From: Minisyncoccia bacterium
Lineage (GTDB): Bacteria; Patescibacteriota; Minisyncoccia; Phycocordibacterales; DATDWN01
Reading direction: 5' to 3'
Length of the DNA: 64,000 nucleotides
Assembly: GCA_049297675.1 (NCBI GenBank)
Contig: JBAQUS010000017.1
Location: forward strand, 7,456-71,455
Shown here piece by piece: positions 6,755-63,902 of the stretch. A model generated the notes under the pieces. It ran no database searches. It was not told the origin of the DNA and worked only from the letters and a program-made list of their open reading frames with translations. The position numbers and the translations under genes were made by a program. Numbering within the stretch: position 1 is the first letter of the stretch; each line of letters begins with the position of its first letter.

Positions 6755-6775
6755 TGTGGAAGACGGTCTTCCACA
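6755..6775. repeat. REP family 1 palindrome TGTGGAAGAC-G-GTCTTCCACA
   Basis: 10-bp perfect arms around a central G. Confidence 0.85.
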
Positions 6776-6788
6776 GTAGTATGTATTT

Positions 6789-7445
6789 ATGGAAAGAAAA
6801 ATACCATTGTTTGAGGGGGAATGCTTTCATATATATAACAGAGGTGTGGATAAAAGAAAAATTTTCTTAGATTCACACGACTATAACAGATTTATAATTT
6901 TACTTTACCTTTGTAACTCAAACTTACCTGTTGATCTTCAAAAAATTTTTCGAGAAGGACGAACATTTAATGAGATATTTAGTATTGATAGAGGCGATCG
7001 ACTTATTGACATAGGCGCTTGGGTGTTGATGCCAAATCACTTTCATCTATTGGCCAGGCAGAATTGTAGTGATGGATTGTCTGTTTTTATGAGAAAACTA
7101 TGTACCGGATACTCAAATTACTTTAATCAAAAAAATAATAGATTAGGAGCGCTTTTTCAGGGCAGATTTAAATCTGAACATGCATCTGATGATAGATATT
7201 TAAAGTATTTATTTTCCTATATTCACTTAAATCCAGTTAAACTTATTCCAGGGGAGGAAAATTGGAAGGAGGTTGGTATAAAAAATCCAGATAATGCATC
7301 TAAATTCATAAATAATTATGAATACTCCAGTCTACATGACTACAGAAATGAGACCTTGTTCAGTAGTCTAGTAAATAAGGAACTATTTAGTAGTATCTCT
7401 GACGATTTAAGGGATATGGTTGAAAGCGTGAATAATTGGCTATAA
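6789..7445 (+). CDS. REP-associated tyrosine transposase (RAYT; IS200-like Y1 HUH transposase), copy 1
   Basis: FHIYNRG, AWVLMPNHFHLL (HuH) and YIHLNPVK (catalytic Tyr) motifs, matching the E. coli RAYT pattern. Confidence 0.8.
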   Translation: MERKIPLFEGECFHIYNRGVDKRKIFLDSHDYNRFIILLYLCNSNLPVDLQKIFREGRTFNEIFSIDRGDRLIDIGAWVLMPNHFHLLARQNCSDGLSVFMRKLCTGYSNYFNQKNNRLGALFQGRFKSEHASDDRYLKYLFSYIHLNPVKLIPGEENWKEVGIKNPDNASKFINNYEYSSLHDYRNETLFSSLVNKELFSSISDDLRDMVESVNNWL

Positions 7446-7453
7446 ATAAGCTT

Positions 7454-7476
7454 TTGTGGAAGACGGTCTTCCACAA
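7454..7476. repeat. REP family 1 palindrome TTGTGGAAGAC-G-GTCTTCCACAA
   Basis: 11-bp perfect arms, in the same orientation as 6755-6775. Confidence 0.85.
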
Positions 7477-21020: not shown

Positions 21021-21051
21021 TACTACCCCTACATCGGAAGTAGGAGTAGTA
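21021..21051. repeat. REP family 2 palindrome TACTACCCCTAC-ATCGGAA-GTAGGAGTAGTA
   Basis: Imperfect 12-bp arms, 7 nt upstream of the RAYT-2 start. Confidence 0.75.
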
Positions 21052-21058
21052 TCTTGGC

Positions 21059-21772
21059 ATGGCAAAAAGAAGGATAAATTTCTCATTAGATGAGTTCTAT
21101 CACTTGTATAATAGAGGAAACAGTAAGCAGAAAATATTTCTTGATGAACAGGATTATGATAGGTTTACCAAACTTCTTTTTCTCTGTAACACCATAAAAA
21201 GTATTAATTATAGGGATGATATCGTTGAAAAAGAAATTGATGCATGGGATTACGATAAAGGAGAAAGTATTGTTTCGATAGGAGCATGGGTTCTAATACC
21301 CAACCACTTTCATATACTTATAACAACACCCCCCACATCGGAAGTCGGGGAGGGGTCGATAAGTTTTTTTATGAAGAAGGTTTGTATTTCATACTCAAAG
21401 TACTTTAATAAAAAGTATGAAAGAGTAGGAGGTTTATTTGAGTCGAATTTTAAGTCTTCACACATAGATGATGATAATTATCTAAAATATATTTTTTCCT
21501 ACATTCACCTTAATCCAGTAAAAAAAGTTTTTCCCAACTGGAAAAATGATGGCATTTTGGATTATGAATTAACAAAAGAGTTTCTGAACAAATATGAGTA
21601 TAGTAGTTACACGGATTATATAAATATAAAAAGAAATCAAAGTAAAATTTTATCGATTGGAGAATTTCCAGACTACTTTTCTGATACTAAATTATTTAAG
21701 GATGAAATTTTTGATTGGCTATCATATACCCCTACTTCCGATGTAGGGGACAATGATGTAGGGGACAATTAG
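21059..21772 (+). CDS. REP-associated tyrosine transposase (RAYT), copy 2
   Basis: FYHLYNRG, AWVLIPNHFHIL and YIHLNPVK motifs. Divergent from copy 1. Confidence 0.8.
   Translation: MAKRRINFSLDEFYHLYNRGNSKQKIFLDEQDYDRFTKLLFLCNTIKSINYRDDIVEKEIDAWDYDKGESIVSIGAWVLIPNHFHILITTPPTSEVGEGSISFFMKKVCISYSKYFNKKYERVGGLFESNFKSSHIDDDNYLKYIFSYIHLNPVKKVFPNWKNDGILDYELTKEFLNKYEYSSYTDYINIKRNQSKILSIGEFPDYFSDTKLFKDEIFDWLSYTPTSDVGDNDVGDN
21329..21355. repeat. REP family 2-like sequence CCCCCCACATCGGAAGTCGGGGAGGGG, in frame inside RAYT-2 (encodes PPTSEVGEG)
   Basis: Shares the ACATCGGAAGT core with the flanking REPs. Confidence 0.6.
21729..21769. repeat. REP family 2 copy in inverse orientation (CCCCTACTTCCGATGTAGGGG) plus a 15-bp tandem duplication (GATGTAGGGGACAAT x2) forming the RAYT-2 C-terminus
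   Basis: Read directly. Encodes ...TPTSDVGDNDVGDN before the stop. Confidence 0.7.
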
Positions 21773-21858
21773 CTGATAATTCATGATGATTTAGGGGGCA
21801 TTTGGAAATATAAGGGAAATTGCTTAGCTGGGAAACAAGGAAAGGAGTGATATTCATT

Positions 21859-21880
21859 CCCCCATATCGGAAGTAGGGGG
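21859..21880. repeat. REP family 2 palindrome CCCCCATATCGGAAGTAGGGGG
   Basis: 5-bp C/G arms around the ATCGGAAGT core. Confidence 0.7.
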
Positions 21881-21907
21881 TGAAGGATTTTTGTGGTGAG
21901 CAATTTT

Positions 21908-21956
21908 AAATAAACAAAACCCCGCGCAACATCCGAGTGCGAAGCACGGGGTTTGT
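21908..21956 (-). terminator. intrinsic terminator on the minus strand (CCCCGTGC...GCGCGGGG then TTTTGTTTATTT)
   Basis: GC-rich hairpin plus a U-tract, immediately downstream of the minus-strand 79-aa gene pair. Confidence 0.55.
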
Positions 21957-21978
21957 TGGCGGGGTGGGGAGGAATGGA

Positions 21979-22218
21979 CTAATCCCTATACTGCTTCCTC
22001 CACTGGGTGAGCTCTTCTTCGGTGATGCCGAGTCTCGACATCCCGTTTTTGGGAAACTCACCGAGGTACTCATCGATGTCTTTGAGGGATGCGTACCCCA
22101 ATGACTGGTTGACTTCTCTCTCACGGAGTGTGTCGACCGCTCTTGGTCCAGTCACCATGACATCCGATGGCATTGGTCCGAACATCTGATTCGCCTTGCG
22201 TTGCCAGTAGTTCGACAT
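21979..22218 (-). CDS. hypothetical protein (79 aa), second gene of a GC-rich two-gene operon
   Basis: AAGGAGGAG RBS and ~50% GC, against a ~37% background. No recognisable domain. Confidence 0.5.
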   Translation of the reverse strand: MSNYWQRKANQMFGPMPSDVMVTGPRAVDTLREREVNQSLGYASLKDIDEYLGEFPKNGMSRLGITEEELTQWRKQYRD

Positions 22219-22251
22219 CTCTCCTCCTTTGGCTTTAGCCCTGTTATGTGG

Positions 22252-22491
22252 CTATAACTTGGCAATTCGATTGTAGCTTCGAACACAGCGACGGAGCGCG
22301 GATTCAGTGTACGCTTCATCTAAGCGATTGGGGAGACGAACAATGAACAGCTCTGCACCGTCCTTGTCATTAACCTTTGTTGCATCGAATTCCCGTGCCG
22401 TGTTGACTAGCCTGTCTTCTTCGAGAGGGAAGTCATTTTCTTCGATGATTACGAGGCCTGTTTCGAATTGTCCTGCATAACCTGGGCGCAT
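22252..22491 (-). CDS. hypothetical protein (79 aa), first gene of a GC-rich two-gene operon
   Basis: AAGGAGG RBS 4 nt from the ATG and a consensus promoter upstream. No recognisable domain. Confidence 0.5.
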   Translation of the reverse strand: MRPGYAGQFETGLVIIEENDFPLEEDRLVNTAREFDATKVNDKDGAELFIVRLPNRLDEAYTESALRRCVRSYNRIAKL

Positions 22492-22514
22492 GAAACCTCC
22501 TTTTTCTAACCGAC

Positions 22515-22543
22515 ATTCTATACTGTTTACATTAACTTGTCAA
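22515..22543 (-). promoter_or_regulatory. near-consensus sigma70 promoter TTGACA-N17-TAGAAT driving the 79-aa gene pair
   Basis: -35 at 22543..22538 and -10 at 22520..22515 on the minus strand. The same hexamers are used at 61781-61808. Confidence 0.55.
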
Positions 22544-22639
22544 GGGTAATTTTGTGGCTAGGAATATTGAATAAATGCTTGTTTGTGAGAGTAGAATTTG
22601 CTATAATTATCAGGTTAAAATGACAAAAAAATAATAAAA

Positions 22640-30877: not shown

Positions 30878-31519
30878 ATGAATTATGTTGTCGGTATAGA
30901 TGAAGTTGGAAGGGGACCACTGGCTGGGCCTGTCACTGTCTGTCTGGTTTGTTGCGAAGATAGATTATATAGAAAGTTAAAGCAAAATAGAAGTTTACCC
31001 AAATTAGGTCAAGACAGCAAAAAAATCTCAGAAAAAAATCGCCAGAAATACTCCTTGACCCTGAAGTCCCTAATGTCAAAGACGGTCTTTGACATTTCCA
31101 AAGGGGACCCCTTTGGGAATGAGATTGGAATGTGGTATGTAGTTAATCATGTTTCAAACAGAGTAATTGACCAAAAGGGAATTTCTTTTGCGATTGAAGG
31201 GGCTATTGCCACAGGAATTAAGGGGTTAAATTTAGATGCAAAAAATTGCATAATTTTGCTTGACGGAGGATTAAGAGTGCCGAAAAATTTTAAACAGAAA
31301 ACAATAATAAAGGGCGACGAGAGGGAAAAAATAATTAGCTGGGCTTCGATTTTGGCAAAAGTTTCGAGGGATGATCTGATGATAAATTTGAGTAGGAAGT
31401 ACTCATTTTATGGTTTTGATAAACACAAAGGCTATGGCACCAAACACCACAGAGAAATGATCCTGGAATTTGGCTTAAGCAAAATTCACCGCAAAACCTT
31501 CTGCAAAAAATTGATTTAG
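30878..31519 (+). CDS. rnhB: ribonuclease HII
   Basis: GIDEVGRGPLAGPV active-site motif. Confidence 0.9.
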   Translation: MNYVVGIDEVGRGPLAGPVTVCLVCCEDRLYRKLKQNRSLPKLGQDSKKISEKNRQKYSLTLKSLMSKTVFDISKGDPFGNEIGMWYVVNHVSNRVIDQKGISFAIEGAIATGIKGLNLDAKNCIILLDGGLRVPKNFKQKTIIKGDEREKIISWASILAKVSRDDLMINLSRKYSFYGFDKHKGYGTKHHREMILEFGLSKIHRKTFCKKLI

Positions 31520-38324: not shown

Positions 38325-40250
38325 TTATGAATTAACAAGAGAGTAGTCGAGCACTCGACGTTCGAGGTCGGCTGAAACAACTTTGAACCTGACTTTGTCG
38401 CCCAATGTGAATTTCTTACCACTACTCTGTCCCTTGATTGTGTAGTTTTTTTCGTCTAGTGACCAAAAGTCATCACCCAAATCCTTTAGCTTTATCATTC
38501 CTTCGCATTTTGTTTCTTTCTCCTCAACATAAATACCCCATTCTGTCACGCCCATTATGGTGCCATCGAATTCCTCACCAACATGCTCTTGCATGTATTC
38601 TACCTGTTTGTACTTTATAGAAGTTCTCTCGGCATCTGTTGCTTTTTTTTCAAGCTCGCTCGATGCTAGACAAAGGGTTTCATATTTTTGAAATTCATCA
38701 AGTTCTACTTTTCCACCCTTGAGCTCTCGCTCTAGAAATCTGTGAACTAATACGTCCGGGTATCTTCTTATGGGTGAAGTAAAGTGCGTATAGTAAGCGA
38801 AAGCTAAAGAGAAATGACCAATGTTTTTTGTCGAGTAAACTGCCTTTTGCATACTTCTGACAGTAGCCGTATTTATGAGTTCCTCATTTGGTGTACCTTT
38901 TACTTCAGCTAAGAGTCGATTCAAATCCTTCGACGTTACTTCACCATCTTTGTTATTTAGATCAAAGCCTAAAGCTTTTAGAAAAATTGCCAAATCTTTT
39001 ATCCTATCTTTGTCTGGATTAGCATGAATACGATAGACAGATTGTTTACCTTTTAAACCTTTGTTTTGTGACATAAAAATATGTTTTGCCACAGCACGGT
39101 TAGCTAGGAGCATAAATTCCTCCACAAGTTTATGAGTATCAAGTCTTGATTTTCTGTAAACAGAAACTGGTTTACCTTTTTCATCTAATACAAACTTTAC
39201 TTCATCAGTATCAAAAACCATTGCTCCAGATTTTATTTTATTTTTTTCAAATTTCTGAGCTATTTCTCTTAGTTTTCTTAGCTCTTTTTGAAATGGGTCT
39301 TGGAGTTTTCCATCAATAACTTCCTGTGCTTCCTCATATGTGAACCTCTTGTCGGAATGTATAACTGTTCGTCCGAACCATTCGTCAAAAACTTTTCCGC
39401 TTCCATCCATTTTAAAAATAGCAGAAAAAGTAAATTTATCCTCGTCTGGGTTTAATGAACAAAGATCATTAGATAAAACTTCAGGGAGCATGGGAATTGT
39501 TCTATCTACCAAATAAACAGAGAGTCCTCTTTTTTCGGCTTCATGATCTAGCTCTGTACCAGGTGTTACAAAATATGAGACGTCAGCGATATGTACACCT
39601 ATCTCGTATGTATCATTCCCTAAATCCACAAATGAAATGGCGTCGTCAAAATCCTTTGCATCAAATGGGTCAATTGTCATAGTAGTGACATCTCTCATAT
39701 CACGACGGTTTTTTATTTCACTTTCGAAATGACTTCTGTATTCCTTTTTTATTTTCTCTGCTTCTTCTTCAACTTTTTCTGGAAATTCAACACGAAATCC
39801 ACGCTCTAGAACAATAGACTCCATCTCTGTGTTGTTCTCTCCCTTCTTTCCTATTACCATTACCAGCTCTCCCGCTAGTGTTTGCCAGTCGACTATTTTA
39901 ACTAGAACCTTTTCATTCTTTATAACATTCTCATCGTTTGGCAAGGAAATATCCACATAAACTCTTTTATCATCGGGAACAGCGTAAACTTTTCCGTCAT
40001 GAATATCTATTGTTCCAACAAACTCATCTCTGGACCTCTTTACTATTTTTTCCACTTTACCCTGTTCACGGTTTCTTATTTTATTTCCCAAAAGAGAGAC
40101 AATCACAATGTCTCCAGAAAATGCCTTGTTTATATTTTCTGGTTGAATCTCTATACTCTCGTCTTTTTTCCTGCTCAGTGGATCAGGGTTAAAAAAACCC
40201 ACACCTTTTGTGTTCACAGATATCTGTCCCTCGAGGGTCTTTTTAGTCAT
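38325..40250 (-). CDS. rnr: ribonuclease R (RNB family exoribonuclease)
   Basis: Cold-shock/OB domain, RNB domain motifs, and a C-terminal S1 domain. Confidence 0.9.
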   Translation of the reverse strand: MTKKTLEGQISVNTKGVGFFNPDPLSRKKDESIEIQPENINKAFSGDIVIVSLLGNKIRNREQGKVEKIVKRSRDEFVGTIDIHDGKVYAVPDDKRVYVDISLPNDENVIKNEKVLVKIVDWQTLAGELVMVIGKKGENNTEMESIVLERGFRVEFPEKVEEEAEKIKKEYRSHFESEIKNRRDMRDVTTMTIDPFDAKDFDDAISFVDLGNDTYEIGVHIADVSYFVTPGTELDHEAEKRGLSVYLVDRTIPMLPEVLSNDLCSLNPDEDKFTFSAIFKMDGSGKVFDEWFGRTVIHSDKRFTYEEAQEVIDGKLQDPFQKELRKLREIAQKFEKNKIKSGAMVFDTDEVKFVLDEKGKPVSVYRKSRLDTHKLVEEFMLLANRAVAKHIFMSQNKGLKGKQSVYRIHANPDKDRIKDLAIFLKALGFDLNNKDGEVTSKDLNRLLAEVKGTPNEELINTATVRSMQKAVYSTKNIGHFSLAFAYYTHFTSPIRRYPDVLVHRFLERELKGGKVELDEFQKYETLCLASSELEKKATDAERTSIKYKQVEYMQEHVGEEFDGTIMGVTEWGIYVEEKETKCEGMIKLKDLGDDFWSLDEKNYTIKGQSSGKKFTLGDKVRFKVVSADLERRVLDYSLVNS

Positions 40251-40315
40251 ATTTTTCAGTTTAGCAAATAAGAATCAGTTTGACCATTTTGTTCTTTCTT
40301 GTTACTATAGCCAGC

Positions 40316-40699
40316 ATGTTAAAAATACGATTACAGAGAGTTGGGAGGGCACACGAGCCGGTTTACAGACTGGTTTTGACCGATTCTAAAAACGCCACAA
40401 AGAGCGGAAAATATTTGGAAAACCTGGGGTCATTTGATTCCAGAAGAGGAGAGAAAGCAGTTTTCAAAGATGATAGGGTAAAATATTGGCTTTCAAAAGG
40501 AGCACAGGCAACTGGCACAGTTCATAATCTCCTTGTTAGCAGGAAAGTTGTACAAGGCAAAAAAATAAATGTTTTGCCAAAAAAGAAGCCTATATTAAAA
40601 GAAGGTGCTGAAACTCCAACTGAAGCCAAAAAAGAGATCGTATTGGAAACTCCGGTTTCAACTCCAAAGGAGGAAGTAGTAGAAACCGTCTCCTCCTAA
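40316..40699 (+). CDS. rpsP: 30S ribosomal protein S16 with a C-terminal extension
   Basis: MLKIRLQRVG...PVYRLV S16 signature. Confidence 0.85.
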   Translation: MLKIRLQRVGRAHEPVYRLVLTDSKNATKSGKYLENLGSFDSRRGEKAVFKDDRVKYWLSKGAQATGTVHNLLVSRKVVQGKKINVLPKKKPILKEGAETPTEAKKEIVLETPVSTPKEEVVETVSS

Positions 40700-40765
40700 T
40701 TTTGACGAAAATTTCTGTTAGCCTTATAATATTACTGTTAGATTAATAATTAACTGAACGACTAA

Positions 40766-41080
40766 ATGGAACTAGACAAAAAATTTTTGGAATTTATTAT
40801 AAAGGAACTCGTTGATAATCCTTCTGACGTAAAAATAAACAGGACTGTAGATGAGATGGGTGTACTCATGACACTGGATGTAAACCCTGCTGACATGGGA
40901 AAGATTATCGGTAGAGAAGGAAATACCGCAAAGGCGATCAGAACACTCCTTCGAGTAGTCGGGATGAAAAATAACGCCAGAGTAAACCTAAAGATAAACG
41001 AACCAGAAGGGGCGGGAAGAGAGGCAAAAATGAGTGCTTCTAAGTCCCTCGACGAAGCAATGTCCGACCTAAATCTCTAA
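40766..41080 (+). CDS. KH-domain RNA-binding protein (KhpA/YlqC-like)
   Basis: KH GxxG motif (IIGREGNTAKAIRTLL). Conserved position after rpsP. Confidence 0.8.
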   Translation: MELDKKFLEFIIKELVDNPSDVKINRTVDEMGVLMTLDVNPADMGKIIGREGNTAKAIRTLLRVVGMKNNARVNLKINEPEGAGREAKMSASKSLDEAMSDLNL

Positions 41081-41099
41081 TTTTATAATTAATCACTCC

Positions 41100-41120
41100 T
41101 GTGGAAGACCGTCTTCCACA
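41100..41120. repeat. REP family 1 palindrome TGTGGAAGAC-C-GTCTTCCACA (opposite orientation to the copies at RAYT-1)
   Basis: Same 10-bp arms as 6755-6775, with central C instead of G. 20 nt after the KH gene stop. Confidence 0.85.
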
Positions 41121-41136
41121 TATTTGTCGTGTTGAC

Positions 41137-41165
41137 TTGACAATGGATTTGTGTGGTGATACAAT
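41137..41165 (+). promoter_or_regulatory. sigma70-like promoter TTGACA-N17-TACAAT inside the rpsP-trmD insert
   Basis: Hexamers and spacing read directly. Confidence 0.4.
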
Positions 41166-41214
41166 GGATAGCGGAACAACCCAAGCTGGTGCTAAGTGCA
41201 CCGAGGAGGATGGA

Positions 41215-41400
41215 ATGAACTGCAAAGGTGAAATCATGACCGGCGGTGAAGTGGCCAGTGTGTTTGCATTCTCGTTTGCCTTGCTGGTGGTCGGAGTACT
41301 CGTCTTCGGGCAGGTGCCGATTGCCCAGGCAATCGAGACAGGCTGGGGCTTCAGTGCCGCCCAGCCCATTCTCAAACTCAAAATTGTGTGGGGAGGGTGA
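41215..41400 (+). CDS. hypothetical small membrane protein (61 aa), GC-rich
   Basis: GAGGAGG RBS and one TM helix. ORF-track frame 41101..41400 trimmed to this ATG. Confidence 0.35.
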   Translation: MNCKGEIMTGGEVASVFAFSFALLVVGVLVFGQVPIAQAIETGWGFSAAQPILKLKIVWGG

Positions 41401-41401
41401 G

Positions 41402-41542
41402 ATGCCAAAAACCTTCTGGCTTTGTCTCTCGTTCATTCTCGTCACGGTTGCTGCCGCAGTGGTCTTTATCTCTTACGAGGTGAAGTACGAGCACAACAAC
41501 CCCGATCGGCCAATCACTCCCATCGCCTTTCGAAGGGCGTGA
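41402..41542 (+). CDS. hypothetical small membrane protein (46 aa), GC-rich
   Basis: GGGGAGGG RBS overlapping the upstream stop, and one TM helix. Confidence 0.3.
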   Translation: MPKTFWLCLSFILVTVAAAVVFISYEVKYEHNNPDRPITPIAFRRA

Positions 41543-41639
41543 GAATTCATGAATGCCGGAGGTGAGGTCTTAGACCACGCCTCCGGTTCGTCGTATATAC
41601 AATTTCATGCATTTGTGATATAAATCAATAGGAGGTAAC

Positions 41640-41747
41640 ATGACCACTATTGCTTTTCTTCTCTTACTTAGTCGATTGAAGATTGTACGGAAATTCATGG
41701 CGTTCTGGAGGCTACTCACTGATCTAGAGAAAAGTGCTGGTCTCTAA
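41640..41747 (+). CDS. possible micro-ORF (35 aa) with an AGGAGG RBS
   Basis: RBS-ATG spacing is ideal. Followed by the perfect hairpin CGAGGAGGAC-ATAA-GTCCTCCTCG (41748-41771). Confidence 0.2.
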   Translation: MTTIAFLLLLSRLKIVRKFMAFWRLLTDLEKSAGL

Positions 41748-41785
41748 CGAGGAGGACATAAGTCCTCCTCGAACTATTTAATATT

Positions 41786-42481
41786 ATGCGTTTCCATATA
41801 ATTACGTTATTTCCAAAGGCCTTTGATTCATATCTAAATGAGTCTATTATTTCTCGTGCCATTGAGGACAAGAAAATTAAAGTTAACTTCTACAACCCAC
41901 GAAATTTTACAAAAGACAAACACAGAAGAATTGATCAGAAGCCGTATGCTGGAGGACCTGGAATGGTCATACAAGCAGAACCTGTAATAAAAGCGATAGA
42001 GAAAGCATTGGGTAGAATATCGAAGCACGAAGCACAAAGCACGAAAAAAATTCGAATTTCGAACATCGAGCGTCGTACTTCTGCCCGAATTATTTTTTTG
42101 AGTCCGGGAGGAAAGCAGTTTGATACGAACTATGCCAAAAAAGTTAATCAAAAATTTACTGATATAATAATTGTTTGTGGTAGATATGAGGGTATTGATG
42201 CTAGAGTTAAAAAGGTGTTCAAAATGGAAGAAATATCGGTTGGGCCATATGTCCTAACAGGCGGGGAATTGCCAGCTATGATACTGATTGACTCAATTTC
42301 AAGGCAGGTTTCAGGGGTTTTAGGAAATATAGATTCTCTTGAAGAGAGAAGAGTAGCAAGCAGAGATGTTTATACAAGACCTGAGGTTCTTGTTCACAAT
42401 GATAAAAAGTACAGAGTGCCGAAAGTTTTGCTTTCCGGTAATCATGCTAAAATAATCGAGTGGAAAAAGAAAAGATCTTAA
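41786..42481 (+). CDS. trmD: tRNA (guanine37-N1)-methyltransferase
   Basis: MRFHIITLFP N-terminus and SPOUT-knot motifs. Confidence 0.9.
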   Translation: MRFHIITLFPKAFDSYLNESIISRAIEDKKIKVNFYNPRNFTKDKHRRIDQKPYAGGPGMVIQAEPVIKAIEKALGRISKHEAQSTKKIRISNIERRTSARIIFLSPGGKQFDTNYAKKVNQKFTDIIIVCGRYEGIDARVKKVFKMEEISVGPYVLTGGELPAMILIDSISRQVSGVLGNIDSLEERRVASRDVYTRPEVLVHNDKKYRVPKVLLSGNHAKIIEWKKKRS

Positions 42482-43608
42482 ACTTAATAAAAATTACTTC
42501 CAACATCGCTACGGTTTTTTTCATTGGACTGATTATTGTTGGCTTAGCAGATGATAAAAAGATAAATAGTCAAAATTGGGTCGTCTTTAAGAGCGACTCA
42601 GAAATTACAAGCAAAACCGAGCTTGCTGAAAAAGTTTCTATCTCTACACCTACAAAAAAAGTTTCAAAGGAAATTGAACCATGCCCTAAGAGTAATACTG
42701 ACTTTGATTGTTATAACGATTACTATAAAAATCTAGTTTTGAAAAAAGGTGTACCGGAAGCAATGAAGGTTTTGAAAGATGAGTACAGTAAAAATCAATA
42801 CGTGGTTGCCCAGTGTCATCCTCTGACACACGTCATAGGTCACGCCGCAGTCTCACTTTACCCGACAGTTTCAGAGGCTTTTACAAATGGTGACGCTTAT
42901 TGTTGGTCAGGATATTATCACGGGGTAATGGAAGAGGTATCAGAGAGAATCGGGCTAAATAAGATTGCCGGGGAACTAAACAATATATGTAAAGATATCC
43001 CTGGAAAGGAAAAATATAGTTTTGACTATTACAACTGTGTTCACGGGTTGGGACATGGAGTAATGGCTGTCAGTGAAAATAATTTATTTAATTCTCTAAA
43101 ACTCTGTGATAATCTAGTTGGGGGCTGGGAACAAAGTTCATGTTACGGTGGAGTATATATGGAAAATATCATTATAGAAGGCCAAGGAGAACATACTGAC
43201 TATCTGAAACCTAGCGATCCACTTTATCCATGTAACTCTGTCGAGAATAAATACAAATCATCGTGTTACCTCATGCAGACATCTTATGCTCTGAAAGTTT
43301 ACAATCAGGATTTCTCAAAAGTATTTGCTTTGTGTAGGAAAGCTGATACAGGGTTTGAAGATATATGTTGGCAGAGCCTTGGAAGAGATGCTTCTGGTTC
43401 GACATCAAGCAATGCCGAGGCAACAAGGGCTAAATGTTATTTTGGTGAAAACTATAGGGAAAGATCAAATTGTGTTGTGGGGGCGGTCAAAGATTTCATC
43501 TCATATTTCCACTCTGACATAGAAGCCAAAAAATTCTGTTCGATTCTTACTGATGATTTGAAACTAGTCTGTTTGGATGTGGCTACTGCTTACTATAAGA
43601 GTTTTTAA
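42460..43608 (+). CDS. hypothetical membrane-anchored Cys/His-rich protein (382 aa)
   Basis: N-terminal TM helix and repeated C..G.GHG / SCY motifs. No recognised family. Confidence 0.5.
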   Translation: MEKEKILNLIKITSNIATVFFIGLIIVGLADDKKINSQNWVVFKSDSEITSKTELAEKVSISTPTKKVSKEIEPCPKSNTDFDCYNDYYKNLVLKKGVPEAMKVLKDEYSKNQYVVAQCHPLTHVIGHAAVSLYPTVSEAFTNGDAYCWSGYYHGVMEEVSERIGLNKIAGELNNICKDIPGKEKYSFDYYNCVHGLGHGVMAVSENNLFNSLKLCDNLVGGWEQSSCYGGVYMENIIIEGQGEHTDYLKPSDPLYPCNSVENKYKSSCYLMQTSYALKVYNQDFSKVFALCRKADTGFEDICWQSLGRDASGSTSSNAEATRAKCYFGENYRERSNCVVGAVKDFISYFHSDIEAKKFCSILTDDLKLVCLDVATAYYKSF

Positions 43609-61562: not shown

Positions 61563-61780
61563 TAGCTCGGGTCTTTTTACTCAATCTCATCGTCTAAAAT
61601 TTAAAAATAATCATCACCTTAGCACTAACTAAGGCTCTTCATATTTTTAAATTTTATACGCGATCTTGAGCAAAAATCCTCCGAGTTTCTTACTTGATAT
61701 CGAGGAGGATACAAAATATCCCATAAAATAAGGTTATTCTAGTTATTAAGATAGAAAAAATTAAGTTCGTCAAAAAATAC

Positions 61781-61808
61781 TTGACAAAAAAAATAACAGT
61801 GCTAGAAT
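61781..61808 (+). promoter_or_regulatory. near-consensus sigma70 promoter TTGACA-N16-TAGAAT
   Basis: Hexamers read directly. AT-rich context just upstream of a GC-rich gene. Confidence 0.55.
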
Positions 61809-61822
61809 ACATATGGAACAGA

Positions 61823-61843
61823 TTGATCGCATTCCGCGATCAA
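61823..61843. promoter_or_regulatory. palindromic operator-like site TTGATCGC-ATTCC-GCGATCAA between the -10 element and the RBS
   Basis: 8-bp perfect arms, positioned at about +15 to +35 of the predicted transcript. Confidence 0.5.
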
Positions 61844-61855
61844 AGGAGGATTCGG

Positions 61856-62506
61856 ATGGCTACCAAAGCGACTGTCAACGAGACCACCGTGCGCCAGGCC
61901 TTTGTGGACTACGCACGTGAGGCGACCCTTGCCGTCGGCAAGGACGGAGTACACCCTCGGTTTGTCGGGTTTTACATCGTTCACGAGGTCACCGATCTCG
62001 TGAATGTAGCGAAGCTCTCATACAAGGAGGGGCGCTTCGATGAGGCATTCGAGAAGATCACCAGTGCGAGGAAGTGGCTTCTCGGTGGTCAGCGCAAGTA
62101 CGTGCTGAGTTCGGTCGAGAAGTACTTCGAGGCTCGTCTCGAGGATCTACGATACTCCGAGCTCGAGCAGGATATCCTCGACGGCGTCAACTCGAAGATG
62201 AGGGAATTCGAGTCAGCTCTCGTTGCCCTCAAGGGTGGCAATGCCAGCCTCGAAGAAGTGACCGTCATGTATTGGGTGCTCAACGATGCAATCGAGAATG
62301 CACCCAAGCTCCAGGCAGAGCGCGACGAGCATCGTCGCAAGCTCGCCGACGAGGATCGTTCCCGCAAGCAACGCGAGAAGATGCTCGCCAAGAAGGCACG
62401 CGAGGCCGAAGAGGCAGAGAAGAGCCGTCAGGCTCAGATCGAAGCCAACGCTCGCTGGCGACAGGAGCGTGAGAGCTTCGTCGACGAGCTCTTCGCGGGG
62501 CTCTAG
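61856..62506 (+). CDS. hypothetical protein (216 aa), strongly GC-rich (~58% by eye), with a charged coiled-coil-like C-terminus
   Basis: AAGGAGG RBS 6 nt before the ATG. Codon usage is dominated by GAG, CTC and CGC, unlike the backbone. No recognised domain. Confidence 0.55.
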   Translation: MATKATVNETTVRQAFVDYAREATLAVGKDGVHPRFVGFYIVHEVTDLVNVAKLSYKEGRFDEAFEKITSARKWLLGGQRKYVLSSVEKYFEARLEDLRYSELEQDILDGVNSKMREFESALVALKGGNASLEEVTVMYWVLNDAIENAPKLQAERDEHRRKLADEDRSRKQREKMLAKKAREAEEAEKSRQAQIEANARWRQERESFVDELFAGL

Positions 62507-62534
62507 TACACAAGGTCGGCAAGGCCGACGAAGT

Positions 62535-62567
62535 CCGGAGAGGACAGCAAACTCTCCGGGCTTTTTT
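62535..62567 (+). terminator. intrinsic terminator CCGGAGAG...CTCTCCGG followed by GCTTTTTT
   Basis: 8-bp stem plus a T6 run. A second hairpin, GTCGGC-AAG-GCCGAC, sits just upstream. Confidence 0.6.
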
Positions 62568-62624
62568 AGTACAAAAATTTTATTTGTGATATTATTACGT
62601 TAGAAATCTTAGAGAGGAGTAAGG

Positions 62625-62756
62625 ATGTCACAGAGGACAAACACTACTATACCTTTCTCGTTAGGGTTCTTCGCCGTTTCATCCGTCTTTGTTGCGGGGG
62701 CAACATTAGTAGCACGTGGGCTAGTGATTGTTCTCAGTCAGTACTTCAACTTCTAG
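62625..62756 (+). CDS. hypothetical micro-membrane protein (43 aa)
   Basis: GAGGAG RBS and one TM helix. GC-elevated. Confidence 0.3.
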   Translation: MSQRTNTTIPFSLGFFAVSSVFVAGATLVARGLVIVLSQYFNF

Positions 62757-62766
62757 CGAGGTAAAG

Positions 62767-62925
62767 ATGGAAAAAAAGAAAGAAGTAATATGTAGTCCGG
62801 TTTGCGATAGTCGCAACATCGGTCCGTACTACTCAACAGGCTACAACATCTGCCGGAAATGCGGGAAACTTCTTGATGAGATCTTGCTCCCCCCAGAAGG
62901 GTCAGAAAGGTTGGTAAAAAAGTAA
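62767..62925 (+). CDS. hypothetical zinc-ribbon micro-protein (52 aa)
   Basis: CSPVC...CRKC Cys pairs, a GAGG RBS, and a terminator downstream. Confidence 0.35.
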   Translation: MEKKKEVICSPVCDSRNIGPYYSTGYNICRKCGKLLDEILLPPEGSERLVKK

Positions 62926-62930
62926 CAAGT

Positions 62931-62982
62931 GCTTGCGGGGGAGGGTAAAGTCAGTTTTCTTTACCCCACGCAAGGCTTTTTT
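62931..62982 (+). terminator. intrinsic terminator CTTGCGGGG.AGGGTAAAG...CTTTACCCCACGCAAG followed by TTTTTT
   Basis: Long imperfect hairpin plus a T6 run. Confidence 0.55.
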
Positions 62983-62987
62983 GTTAC

Positions 62988-63010
62988 ATGCCAAGGGGCA
63001 CCCTTGGCAT
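62988..63010. repeat. REP family 3 palindrome ATGCCAAGGG-GCA-CCCTTGGCAT
   Basis: 10-bp perfect arms with loop GCA. Confidence 0.85.
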
Positions 63011-63050
63011 AAGTGAATAATTATGGAAATATCACGACTTGGTCCTTTAA

Positions 63051-63072
63051 ATGCCAAGGGTGCCCCTTGGCA
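63051..63072. repeat. REP family 3 palindrome ATGCCAAGGG-TGC-CCCTTGGCA (inverse orientation)
   Basis: Same arms with loop TGC. Confidence 0.85.
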
Positions 63073-63174
63073 AGTAGGAAGTCAGTATTTAGTTATACAT
63101 CCCCGTCTTTCGTAGAATATTTTTCTCGAAACTTATCAATATTGTTTAAGGGCTTTTTCAGTAAGTCCACTACT

Positions 63175-63795
63175 TTACATTGGATCATTAGATAAGTTTA
63201 TTGTTTCGTCTAAGAAATCGTTACCGTCAAACAGTTCTTCAATAATTTGTCTATAAACAAGTATGAAATTCCTATCAGAAGTGTAGTCGATATAACTACT
63301 CCATTTATAATCATTAATATTACTTACAAGTCCATCTTTCAAGGGATTTGTGTGAATGTAGGCAGAAGTCCACATCAATTGTTCGTTTGAATTTATAACT
63401 TTAGACTTGAACTGATCTTGAAATAGATGACCAACTCTTTTATATTTTCTATTAATGTACATTGCATAACTTGTACAAAGTTTTAATATTAAATTTGAAA
63501 TGGGAATATTTTTCGATTGCTCGATCAATAAATGAAAATGATTTGGCATTAGACAAAAAGAGTGTAATTTAAATGCATTTTTTCCTAGCCCTTCTATCCT
63601 AATTCTGGAGTGAGGGAGATTGGTCAGTACATTTTTGTTTAATTCGGCTTCCTCAAACCCCAAAATTAGGCCTAGTCTAAATAAAAATGCCCTGTAATCC
63701 TGCTGGTCAAAGAATATTTTTTCTTTATTGTTACCCCTATTGTAGGCATGGAAGATTGAACCATCACCAACATCTTTGTAATCTCTTAGTTTCAT
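63175..63795 (-). CDS. REP-associated tyrosine transposase (RAYT), copy 3
   Basis: FHAYNRG, FCLMPNHFHLL and YIHTNPLK motifs. Confidence 0.8.
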   Translation of the reverse strand: MKLRDYKDVGDGSIFHAYNRGNNKEKIFFDQQDYRAFLFRLGLILGFEEAELNKNVLTNLPHSRIRIEGLGKNAFKLHSFCLMPNHFHLLIEQSKNIPISNLILKLCTSYAMYINRKYKRVGHLFQDQFKSKVINSNEQLMWTSAYIHTNPLKDGLVSNINDYKWSSYIDYTSDRNFILVYRQIIEELFDGNDFLDETINLSNDPM

Positions 63796-63826
63796 AGCCC
63801 ATTATAATCTAGGATTGTTAATGTAA

Positions 63827-63848
63827 TGTCAAGGGTGCCCCTTGGCAA
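63827..63848. repeat. REP family 3 palindrome TGTCAAGGG-TGC-CCCTTGGCAA (one G-T mismatch in the stem)
   Basis: ~30 nt upstream of the RAYT-3 start. Confidence 0.75.
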
Positions 63849-63902
63849 CCACTTAATTTGGGGGGGAGATTTTTTTGGTCGAAATTAATTTCATGCTATC
63901 CT

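Follow-up and report, generated by a model that had tools for sequence, protein, structure and literature searches.

A probably inherited cassette of orphan membrane-peptide genes in the variable khpA-trmD spacer of a Minisyncoccia bacterium

We analysed a stretch of 64,000 nucleotides from the genome of a Minisyncoccia bacterium (assembly GCA_049297675.1, contig JBAQUS010000017.1, positions 7,456 to 71,455), hereafter the window, and in it the spacer between khpA, encoding a KH-domain RNA-binding protein, and trmD, encoding the tRNA m1G37 methyltransferase. The spacer holds a promoter, three small open reading frames (ORF1 to ORF3), each led by a Shine-Dalgarno (SD) sequence, two hairpins and, at its khpA end, one copy of a repetitive extragenic palindrome (REP). 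An earlier note on this DNA had named the promoter, the 61-, 46- and 35-aa ORFs, the SD sequences of the first two, both hairpins and the flanking genes, all of which we recovered, and had explained them by a REP-associated insertion or replacement inside a core ribosome-biogenesis operon. The features of the locus are listed below in window coordinates.

40316-40699, plus strand: rpsP, ribosomal protein S16 (PF00886, 2e-15; TIGR00002, 3e-22)
40702-40730, plus strand: promoter-like site before khpA, TTGACG-17-TATAAT, 11 of 12 consensus positions
40766-41080, plus strand: khpA (PF13083, 3e-21)
41085-41120, minus strand: REP family 1 copy, palindrome core 41100-41120, differing at 0-1 positions from the copies at 6755 and 7455
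41137-41165, plus strand: cassette promoter TTGACA-N17-(TG)TACAAT, 11 of 12 consensus positions plus the upstream TG
41215-41400, plus strand: ORF1, 61 aa, one predicted membrane-spanning segment (residues 13-31), GGAGG 6 nt upstream
41402-41542, plus strand: ORF2, 46 aa, predicted N-terminal membrane segment and charged tail, GGAGG 5 nt upstream
41555-41587, plus strand: hairpin 1, 14-bp GC-rich stem, no U-tract, -24.9 kcal/mol, z = -4.9
41616-41624, plus strand: extended -10-like motif TGaTATAAA upstream of ORF3, read from the sequence
41640-41747, plus strand: ORF3, 35 aa, basic and amphipathic, AGGAGG 4 nt upstream
41748-41771, plus strand: hairpin 2, perfect 10-bp stem CGAGGAGGAC/GUCCUCCUCG, -19.6 kcal/mol, z = -7.4
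41786-42481, plus strand: trmD (NF000648, 8e-69; TIGR00088, 5e-64)

The GC content, 37.9% in the window as a whole, reaches 52-57% over approximately 41150-41600, and the GC content of third codon positions (GC3) is 0.66 in both ORF1 and ORF2 compared with 0.31-0.41 in the neighbouring host genes. The maximum Kyte-Doolittle hydropathy over 19 residues was 2.69 for each of these two ORFs. ORF3 is host-like in composition (GC 0.41, GC3 0.42), with a maximum hydropathy of 1.5 and no clear membrane segment. The description of the spacer as a GC-rich micro-ORF cassette thus fits ORF1 and ORF2, with one membrane segment each, and does not extend to ORF3. The ATG of ORF2 lies 1 nt past the stop codon of ORF1, and translation of this putative gene is probably coupled to that of ORF1. 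ORF1 itself may instead be translated from an ATG farther inside it (41236) that is preceded by a GGTGA SD sequence and is the start shared with a distant relative described below. Hairpin 1 follows ORF2 by 13 nt and is likely the 3' end or a stabiliser of an ORF1-ORF2 transcript, whereas the motif TGaTATAAA farther downstream resembles the extended -10 motif TGTGTTATAAAT of four related loci (L008, L010, L013, L023) and is a candidate promoter for the putative ORF3. Hairpin 2 begins right at the ORF3 stop codon and ends 14 nt before the trmD ATG; both hairpins are single-copy in the window. The promoter scan scored 12 consensus positions of sigma-70 type on both strands of 40200-42600. In the deposited annotation ORF1 is called as a 99-aa protein starting from a GTG inside the REP palindrome and ORF2 and ORF3 are left unannotated (window 41101-41400), while the ORF1 protein is annotated as 78 aa in three other metagenome-assembled genomes (MAGs) at NCBI (MFZ2522697.1, MFZ2569785.1, MFZ2728470.1), where the upstream sequence (the REP) may differ. 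Gene callers have therefore missed or mis-called the genes of the cassette. A contig independently assembled by Logan from run SRR28011830 (L003) runs from RNase R to the start of trmD and is identical to the window; as it covers both junctions of the island, these are real and no assembly artefact.

Subsequently, we compared the locus with its relatives, using 79 loci fetched by TrmD from one-genome-per-species contigs and 80 fetched by KhpA from metagenome contigs. One relative, a 1.4-kb contig of another assembly (L004) found by the ORF1 protein search, encodes a TrmD 91% identical to that of the window and a KhpA fragment 100% identical, and has the same layout: promoter (TATAAT), ORF1, ORF2, hairpin 1, ORF3, hairpin 2 and trmD. 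Between the two sequences the synonymous divergence (dS) was 0.60 for khpA, with no nonsynonymous divergence (dN = 0), 0.47 for trmD (dN/dS 0.11) and 0.43 for ORF1, with a dN/dS of 0.36 in its own frame and of about 1 in the other two. ORF1 also differs by an in-frame indel of 6 nt, and the antisense ORFs of the window (118-122 aa) are broken in L004. Given this frame-specific selection, the in-frame indel and the loss of the antisense frames, ORF1 is by these measures a protein-coding gene under purifying selection that diverged together with its flanks, and as its dS matches that of khpA and trmD the island appears to have been inherited rather than recently inserted. In hairpin 1 of L004 a G-to-A change turns a G.U pair into A-U, and the sole change in hairpin 2 lies in the loop. 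The values for the two other ORFs were much lower, with a dS of 0.03 for ORF2 (one synonymous difference in 141 nt) and of 0 for ORF3 (no difference in 108 nt).

A more distant relative (L005; TrmD 76% and KhpA 91% identical) has a khpA-trmD spacer of 253 bp that shares the cassette promoter (TTGACTTGACA...GTGGTG...TACTAT). An ORF of 26-33 aa with an SD sequence follows; its N-terminal MRYKGGSM matches MNCKGEIM of ORF1 (MxxKGxxM) and precedes a membrane segment; the core of the 5' arm of hairpin 1, CCGGAGGTGASGTCTYAG, is kept and trmD comes directly after it. Since promoter, ORF1 N-terminus and hairpin-1 core are common to both, the frame of the cassette predates the split of the lineages. No counterpart of ORF3 was found in L005, and ORF2 and the unit of ORF3 and hairpin 2 occur in the lineage of the window and L004 only. 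A recent date for the insertion or replacement proposed earlier is at odds with the similar dS of ORF1 and its flanks (0.43 versus 0.47-0.60) and with the cassette frame shared by L005.

The second element of the earlier explanation was that the canonical order rpsP, khpA, rimM, trmD, rplS had been disrupted and rimM displaced. We built profile hidden Markov models (HMMs) of RimM and L19 on non-CPR loci (CPR, Candidate Phyla Radiation; 41 and 42 loci, respectively) from E. coli seed sequences, the RimM seed being validated through its matches in the control loci. In these 41 and 42 loci rimM lies just upstream and rplS just downstream of trmD. At E<=10 neither model matched anywhere in the 64-kb window, in 30 Paceibacteria/Zambryskibacteria-type loci, in the 80 metagenome loci or in two other CPR loci (Peribacteria L044 and Gracilibacteria L079), so that the absence of rimM and the lack of rplS after trmD noted earlier were borne out. 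Synteny was counted in 95 related Paceibacteria/Minisyncoccia loci with both khpA and trmD. In all of them trmD directly follows khpA, and none has rimM between the two genes or rplS after trmD. The spacer has a median length of 107 bp (range -4 to 1809) and measures up to 40 bp in 17 loci, 41-150 bp in 41, 151-350 bp in 17 and more than 350 bp in 20; on one short contig (L033) a khpA-like fragment lies on the opposite strand. According to two surveys (PMC6744442, PMC12641178), most or nearly all CPR genomes lack rimM, and the loss of this gene in the reduced ribosome-biogenesis set of the CPR/Patescibacteria agrees with the window. As locus survey and literature both show the absence, rpsP-khpA-trmD without rimM and rplS is, judged by synteny, the normal inherited order of this CPR clade and not a result of the insert. 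Neither displacement of rimM, which is lacking even in the 17 loci with spacers of up to 40 bp, nor disruption of a canonical rimM-trmD-rplS order is compatible with this ancestral state. The earlier note had itself listed an ancestral region as grounds for refuting its explanation, and for the order without rimM this applies. What stands of the proposed insertion into a core operon is that, compared with the compact arrangement, the window has extra, compositionally atypical DNA with its own promoter, placed between two genes that share an operon elsewhere, and what falls is the replacement, the link to the REP and the recency.

Compared with the trmD operon of E. coli (rpsP-rimM-trmD-rplS) and of Firmicutes (rpsP-khpA/ylqC-rimM-trmD-rplS), the window keeps rpsP, khpA and trmD in canonical order and orientation, whereas rimM and rplS are lacking, as in the 95 related loci, and trmD has no SD sequence. 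Unlike the canonical operon, the window has promoter-like sites before khpA and before the cassette and terminator-like hairpins between the genes. The site before khpA suggests that this gene need not share a transcript with rpsP, and because such sites and hairpins separate the genes, rpsP, khpA and trmD probably do not form one operon in the window.

The REP copy proved to be genuine. The palindrome TGTGGAAGACCGTCTTCCACA at 41100-41120 lies 19-20 nt 3' of the khpA stop codon, and with the central base G it recurs at 6755-6775 and 7455-7475 on both sides of a gene (6789-7445, 218 aa) resembling REP-associated tyrosine transposases (RAYTs), where no such recurrence is expected by chance. The position of the palindrome about 20 nt after the KH gene and 34 kb from the RAYT-like gene is as described earlier. 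The copy at 41100 is inverted relative to the two flanking copies, and its likeness to the 6755 copy reaches approximately 15 nt past the palindrome, giving an inverted stretch of 36 nt with 86% matches. It would fold into a hairpin with a 9-bp stem (-11.9 kcal/mol) that appeared terminator-like in our scan. The RAYT-like ORF matches Pfam Y1_Tnp with 28.9 bits (cut-off 23) and NCBIfam REP_Tyr_transpos with 50.6 bits, below the cut-off of 80 bits, and HFH and YIHLNP motifs are visible. In the 64-kb window REP family 1 comprises three exact or near-exact copies and one degenerate one, all single. At 31073-31094 we noted a degenerate relative, ATGTCAAAGACGGTCTTTGACA, followed by a second palindrome, GGGGACCCCTTTGGG....

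With REP/RAYT systems the window thus shares a Y1 HUH-type transposase-like gene, an identical 21-nt palindrome on both of its sides, an extra extragenic copy and, in the 41100 copy, a position just past a stop codon. REPs just after stop codons act as terminators or mRNA stabilisers in E. coli. Unlike the dispersed, often inverted pairs with a GTAG tetranucleotide known from such systems, the window has 3-4 single copies in 64 kb, with GTAG beside the 6755 copy only; the flanking copies have the same orientation rather than an inverted one, the RAYT score stays below the NCBIfam cut-off, and the 64 kb contain three paralogous RAYT-like genes, every one with a palindrome family of its own. The palindrome was found in copies of the window itself and in no fetched relative's locus, including L004 and L005. 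In its place between the khpA stop codon and the -35 box, L004 has the same island with an unrelated hairpin, CCCCCGAA...TTCGGGGG, and a terminator-type hairpin follows khpA at this position in L004, L005 and other relatives. Since L004 carries the island without the REP, the comparison indicates that the REP is a separate, later arrival, independent of the island, and the supposed REP-associated insertion has to be given up. We propose that a palindrome of the genome's own RAYT/REP family 1 would have taken the position of the khpA terminator hairpin, where it probably serves as the khpA terminator.

The spacer is variable among the relatives as well. In other loci the place between khpA and trmD is taken by different small ORFs, likewise SD-led and elevated in GC and GC3, which are typically bounded by the terminator hairpin of khpA on one side and a further hairpin ahead of trmD on the other. 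Three separate lineages (L010, L023, L105) encode there a four-cysteine protein of 57-61 aa with the pattern C..C...C..C...SNW[HD]xAxQ, each copy with its own SD sequence and downstream hairpin. The proteins of L010 and L023 had no significant Pfam match, and a small unannotated zinc-ribbon family tied to the khpA-trmD locus is possible. Related membrane proteins are encoded in the spacers of L008 and L086, a lipoprotein-like 80-mer in that of L014 and a 202-aa membrane-protein ORF in that of L021. When the cargo ORFs of the relatives were compared with Pfam, only an ABC_trans_CmpB domain (L007) and a borderline SH3_12 (L008) were obtained. Judged from this survey, the spacer between khpA and trmD serves the clade as a permissive slot in which small orphan genes vary from genome to genome. 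The accessible text of the two CPR surveys (PMC6744442, PMC12641178) does not describe this spacer or its variable small-gene content.

The cassette of the window is itself orphan. Searches with ORF1 in 5.8 billion proteins (word-indexed) and, with a two-sequence profile, in 1.84 billion representative proteins yielded its own cluster and L004 only. A protein search with ORF2 gave no candidate homologue, a fused query of ORF1, ORF2 and ORF3 found nothing in IMG/VR or JGI metagenome contigs, and no phage or plasmid matched the island DNA. When looked up by exact sequence, ORF1, ORF2 and P0001 had no record. In Rfam the sole match at gathering score in the whole window was a tRNA, and 40900-41900 gave at E<=10 two chance-level matches only (12-13 bits against gathering scores of 36-50). 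Judging by the GC3 of 0.66, an ancestor probably acquired the ORF1-ORF2 part horizontally, a foreign source being the simplest explanation. An integron cassette with attC sites was considered informally and rejected: the hairpins are too short (24-33 nt), every unit is preceded by a promoter of its own, and there is no integrase in the vicinity. attC sites are longer than 24-33 nt. We also gave up, as a general mechanism, the idea of ORF3 as a leader peptide sensing m1G37, as the raised share of TrmD-dependent codons (23% versus a background of 9%, p = 0.012) amounts to leucine richness; the CUN share of its leucine codons is not raised, and in relatives the ORFs preceding trmD are not generally enriched in such codons, with L028 as the one exception.

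Taken together, we consider it probable that the spacer holds an inherited orphan membrane-peptide cassette, placed in a variable slot within a gene order that is normal for the clade in lacking rimM, with the REP as a separate and later addition. In this model the near-consensus promoter of sigma-70 type would drive a bicistronic mRNA from approximately 41172 to approximately 41590, from which ORF1 and ORF2 would be translated in a coupled fashion into two single-pass membrane peptides, the transcript ending at hairpin 1. ORF3 and hairpin 2 would form a second short unit and the leader of the SD-less trmD, and the ORF1-ORF2 cassette would have been kept under purifying selection since its entry. 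Our best guess for its function is an accessory membrane peptide pair.

Several observations weigh against parts of this model. Hairpin 1 lacks a U-tract and is thus no canonical intrinsic terminator. ORF1 to ORF3 have no match in Pfam, NCBIfam, PADLOC or PHROG. ORF2 and ORF3 are nearly identical in the only two lineages that have them, and can be called coding only provisionally. The block of low divergence between the window and L004 (approximately 41390-41975, about 590 bp, about 3%) runs into the first approximately 190 nt of trmD, and their near-identity is therefore probably the trace of a recombination tract rather than of constraint. The block shows 9 differences over 135 bases outside the ORFs and a single one over 249 bases inside them, a pattern compatible with coding constraint but weak as evidence for it. 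The high GC3 is also maintained in three lineages despite saturated synonymous divergence, which selection on the RNA would explain at least as well as a foreign origin does. RNA-level constraint as the primary reading of the near-identity of ORF2 and ORF3 was dismissed, as the block continues into trmD at a similar 3% or so.

A rival explanation takes the cassette as a module resembling type I toxin-antitoxin systems, in which a hydrophobic peptide (ORF2, ORF1 or the 26-aa peptide of L005) would be a membrane-damaging toxin, a GC-rich folded mRNA would hide the ribosome-binding site and an unrecognised antisense RNA would be the antidote. With loci such as hok/sok, ldr/rdl, fst, tisB/istR and aapA/isoA the cassette shares short single-pass hydrophobic peptides of 26-61 aa with charged tails, a strong promoter of its own, an intergenic place, a strongly folded mRNA with a predicted SD helix and a patchy, lineage-specific distribution. 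The predicted transcript folds better than shuffled sequences (z = -3.05), and a long-range helix of 14-15 bp would pair the SD sequence and AUG of ORF1 with a pyrimidine-rich segment inside ORF2. When the window and L004 were folded independently, both predictions contained this helix, which in the window joins 41203-41218 to 41429-41443, and the two substitutions in it keep the pairing; the high GC is kept in three lineages. However, pyrimidine-rich codons of membrane segments pair by chance with SD-like purine runs, and beyond the SD helix the fold is not conserved in L004, with 9 changed pairs kept and 18 broken. Moreover, the consensus scan of 40200-42600 detected no promoter-like site on the minus strand and no antisense RNA gene, the peptides bear no likeness to Hok, Ldr, Fst, TisB, Ibs or any PADLOC model, two coupled conserved ORFs with a third are atypical, and other cargo of the slot is cysteine-rich, soluble and not toxin-like. 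We therefore regard a type I-like module as unlikely. A small chance only is likewise given to the wider proposal that the khpA-trmD spacer is a long-lived hotspot of GC-rich, self-promoted peptide genes whose cassette in the window is type I toxin-like, with an mRNA selected to hide the SD sequence. We know of no toxin-like peptide system of this kind described before in the CPR, and if the proposal were true this would, as far as we are aware, be the first one. That the island is instead a structured non-coding RNA gene with incidental small ORFs would agree with the frequent occurrence of structured RNAs as GC-rich islands in AT-rich genomes, with the promoter and terminal hairpin, with fold z-scores of -6.2 (the region of 705 nt) and -3.05 (the transcript), and with the nearly substitution-free ORF2 and ORF3. 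Much of the fold z-score, however, comes from three discrete hairpins, the near-identity reaches into trmD as a recombination tract would, and no Rfam family was found at the gathering threshold. In addition, all three ORFs have well-spaced SD sequences of GGAGG type and ORF1 shows frame-specific purifying selection and an in-frame indel. Outside the SD helix, substitutions disrupt two predicted pairs for each one that they preserve, so that the folds lend no support to a global RNA structure. On the whole we regard this explanation as very unlikely.

The insertion of the cassette by a REP/RAYT event that displaced rimM (and rplS) from an rpsP-khpA-rimM-trmD-rplS operon could draw on the genuine REP family 1 copy adjoining the island and on the position of the three GC-richest islands of the window (61761-62640, 41101-41640 and 21821-22500), each within approximately 350 bp of a REP-type palindrome, albeit of different families. 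The latter is explained more simply if a compact genome has few intergenic sites that tolerate extra DNA and both kinds of element gather there, and with the island free of a REP in L004, the REP in no relative, rimM and rplS absent at the locus in all 95 relatives, including those with the shortest spacers, and an ORF1 as diverged as the flanking genes, we find this scenario hardly credible. An assembly chimera or contaminant, which an abrupt GC shift in a MAG might suggest, has a practically negligible probability: the Logan assembly crosses both junctions with identical sequence, a contig of the unrelated assembly GCA_021733565.1 has the same layout, and three further MAGs at NCBI carry an annotated ORF1 protein.

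The wider neighbourhood of the locus comprises the following further genes.

38325-40250, minus strand: RNase R
42460-43608: unassigned 382-aa ORF, downstream of trmD
43645-45321: Pif1-type helicase

The 382-aa ORF is cysteine-rich with an N-terminal hydrophobic segment and overlaps the end of trmD by 22 nt; it had no match in Pfam, NCBIfam, PADLOC or PHROG and no counterpart in the 95 related loci. A Pif1-type helicase gene is found downstream of trmD, at variable distance, in many of the closer relatives, and the trmD-pif1 spacer looks like another variable slot. No SD sequence of trmD was found in the window or in the relatives. In L008, L010, L013 and L023 the motif TGTGTTATAAAT ends 6-8 nt before the trmD ATG, and this position suggests leaderless trmD mRNAs in several relatives. 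The sequence TATTT(A/T)(A/T)TATT directly 5' of the trmD ATG is common to the window (41772-41785), L004 and L007.

The two other GC-rich islands of the window were also inspected. The second, 21821-22500 (with 21026-21881), reaches 56% GC. Its cassette, on the minus strand, comprises a promoter near 22517-22545 (TTGACA-N17-TATAGA), two ORFs of 79 aa preceded by GGAGG (22491 to 22252 and 22218 to 21979), both without Pfam match, and a GC hairpin near 21925-21955. On one side of this island is gyrB and on the other a second RAYT-like gene (21059-21772), which has CCCCTAC..GTAGGGG palindromes at its flanks; the layout resembles a two-gene module of toxin-antitoxin type. The third and strongest, 61761-63850, reaches 65% GC and contains an ORF of 241 aa (61781-62506) without Pfam match, then a 43-aa membrane ORF (62625-62756) and a 65-aa zinc-ribbon-like ORF (62728-62925). 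Beyond these, a third RAYT-like gene on the minus strand (63175-63795) is surrounded by ATGCCAAGGG..CCCTTGGCAT palindromes, which lie at 62985, 63050 and 63825. The products of the second and third RAYT-like genes are 46% and 35% identical to that of the first (6789-7445). By a rough estimate, the proximity of all three GC-richest islands to a RAYT palindrome has a chance probability below 1%, and may mean that both kinds of element gather in few tolerant intergenic sites. A CPR genome with three paralogous RAYT-like genes in 64 kb, each near a GC-rich island, is a mildly useful observation in itself.

Our analysis is of use mainly in correcting the earlier explanation: that trmD has no rimM and rplS around it is a known trait of the CPR lineage and not the mark of a disrupted operon, and the REP next to the island is incidental. 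Furthermore, the ORF1-ORF2 pair is a candidate small-protein family, conserved and equipped with a promoter, with one member under frame-specific purifying selection, and the khpA-trmD slot, available from about 95 relatives, may provide a handy natural test bed for the gain and loss of small genes in reduced genomes.

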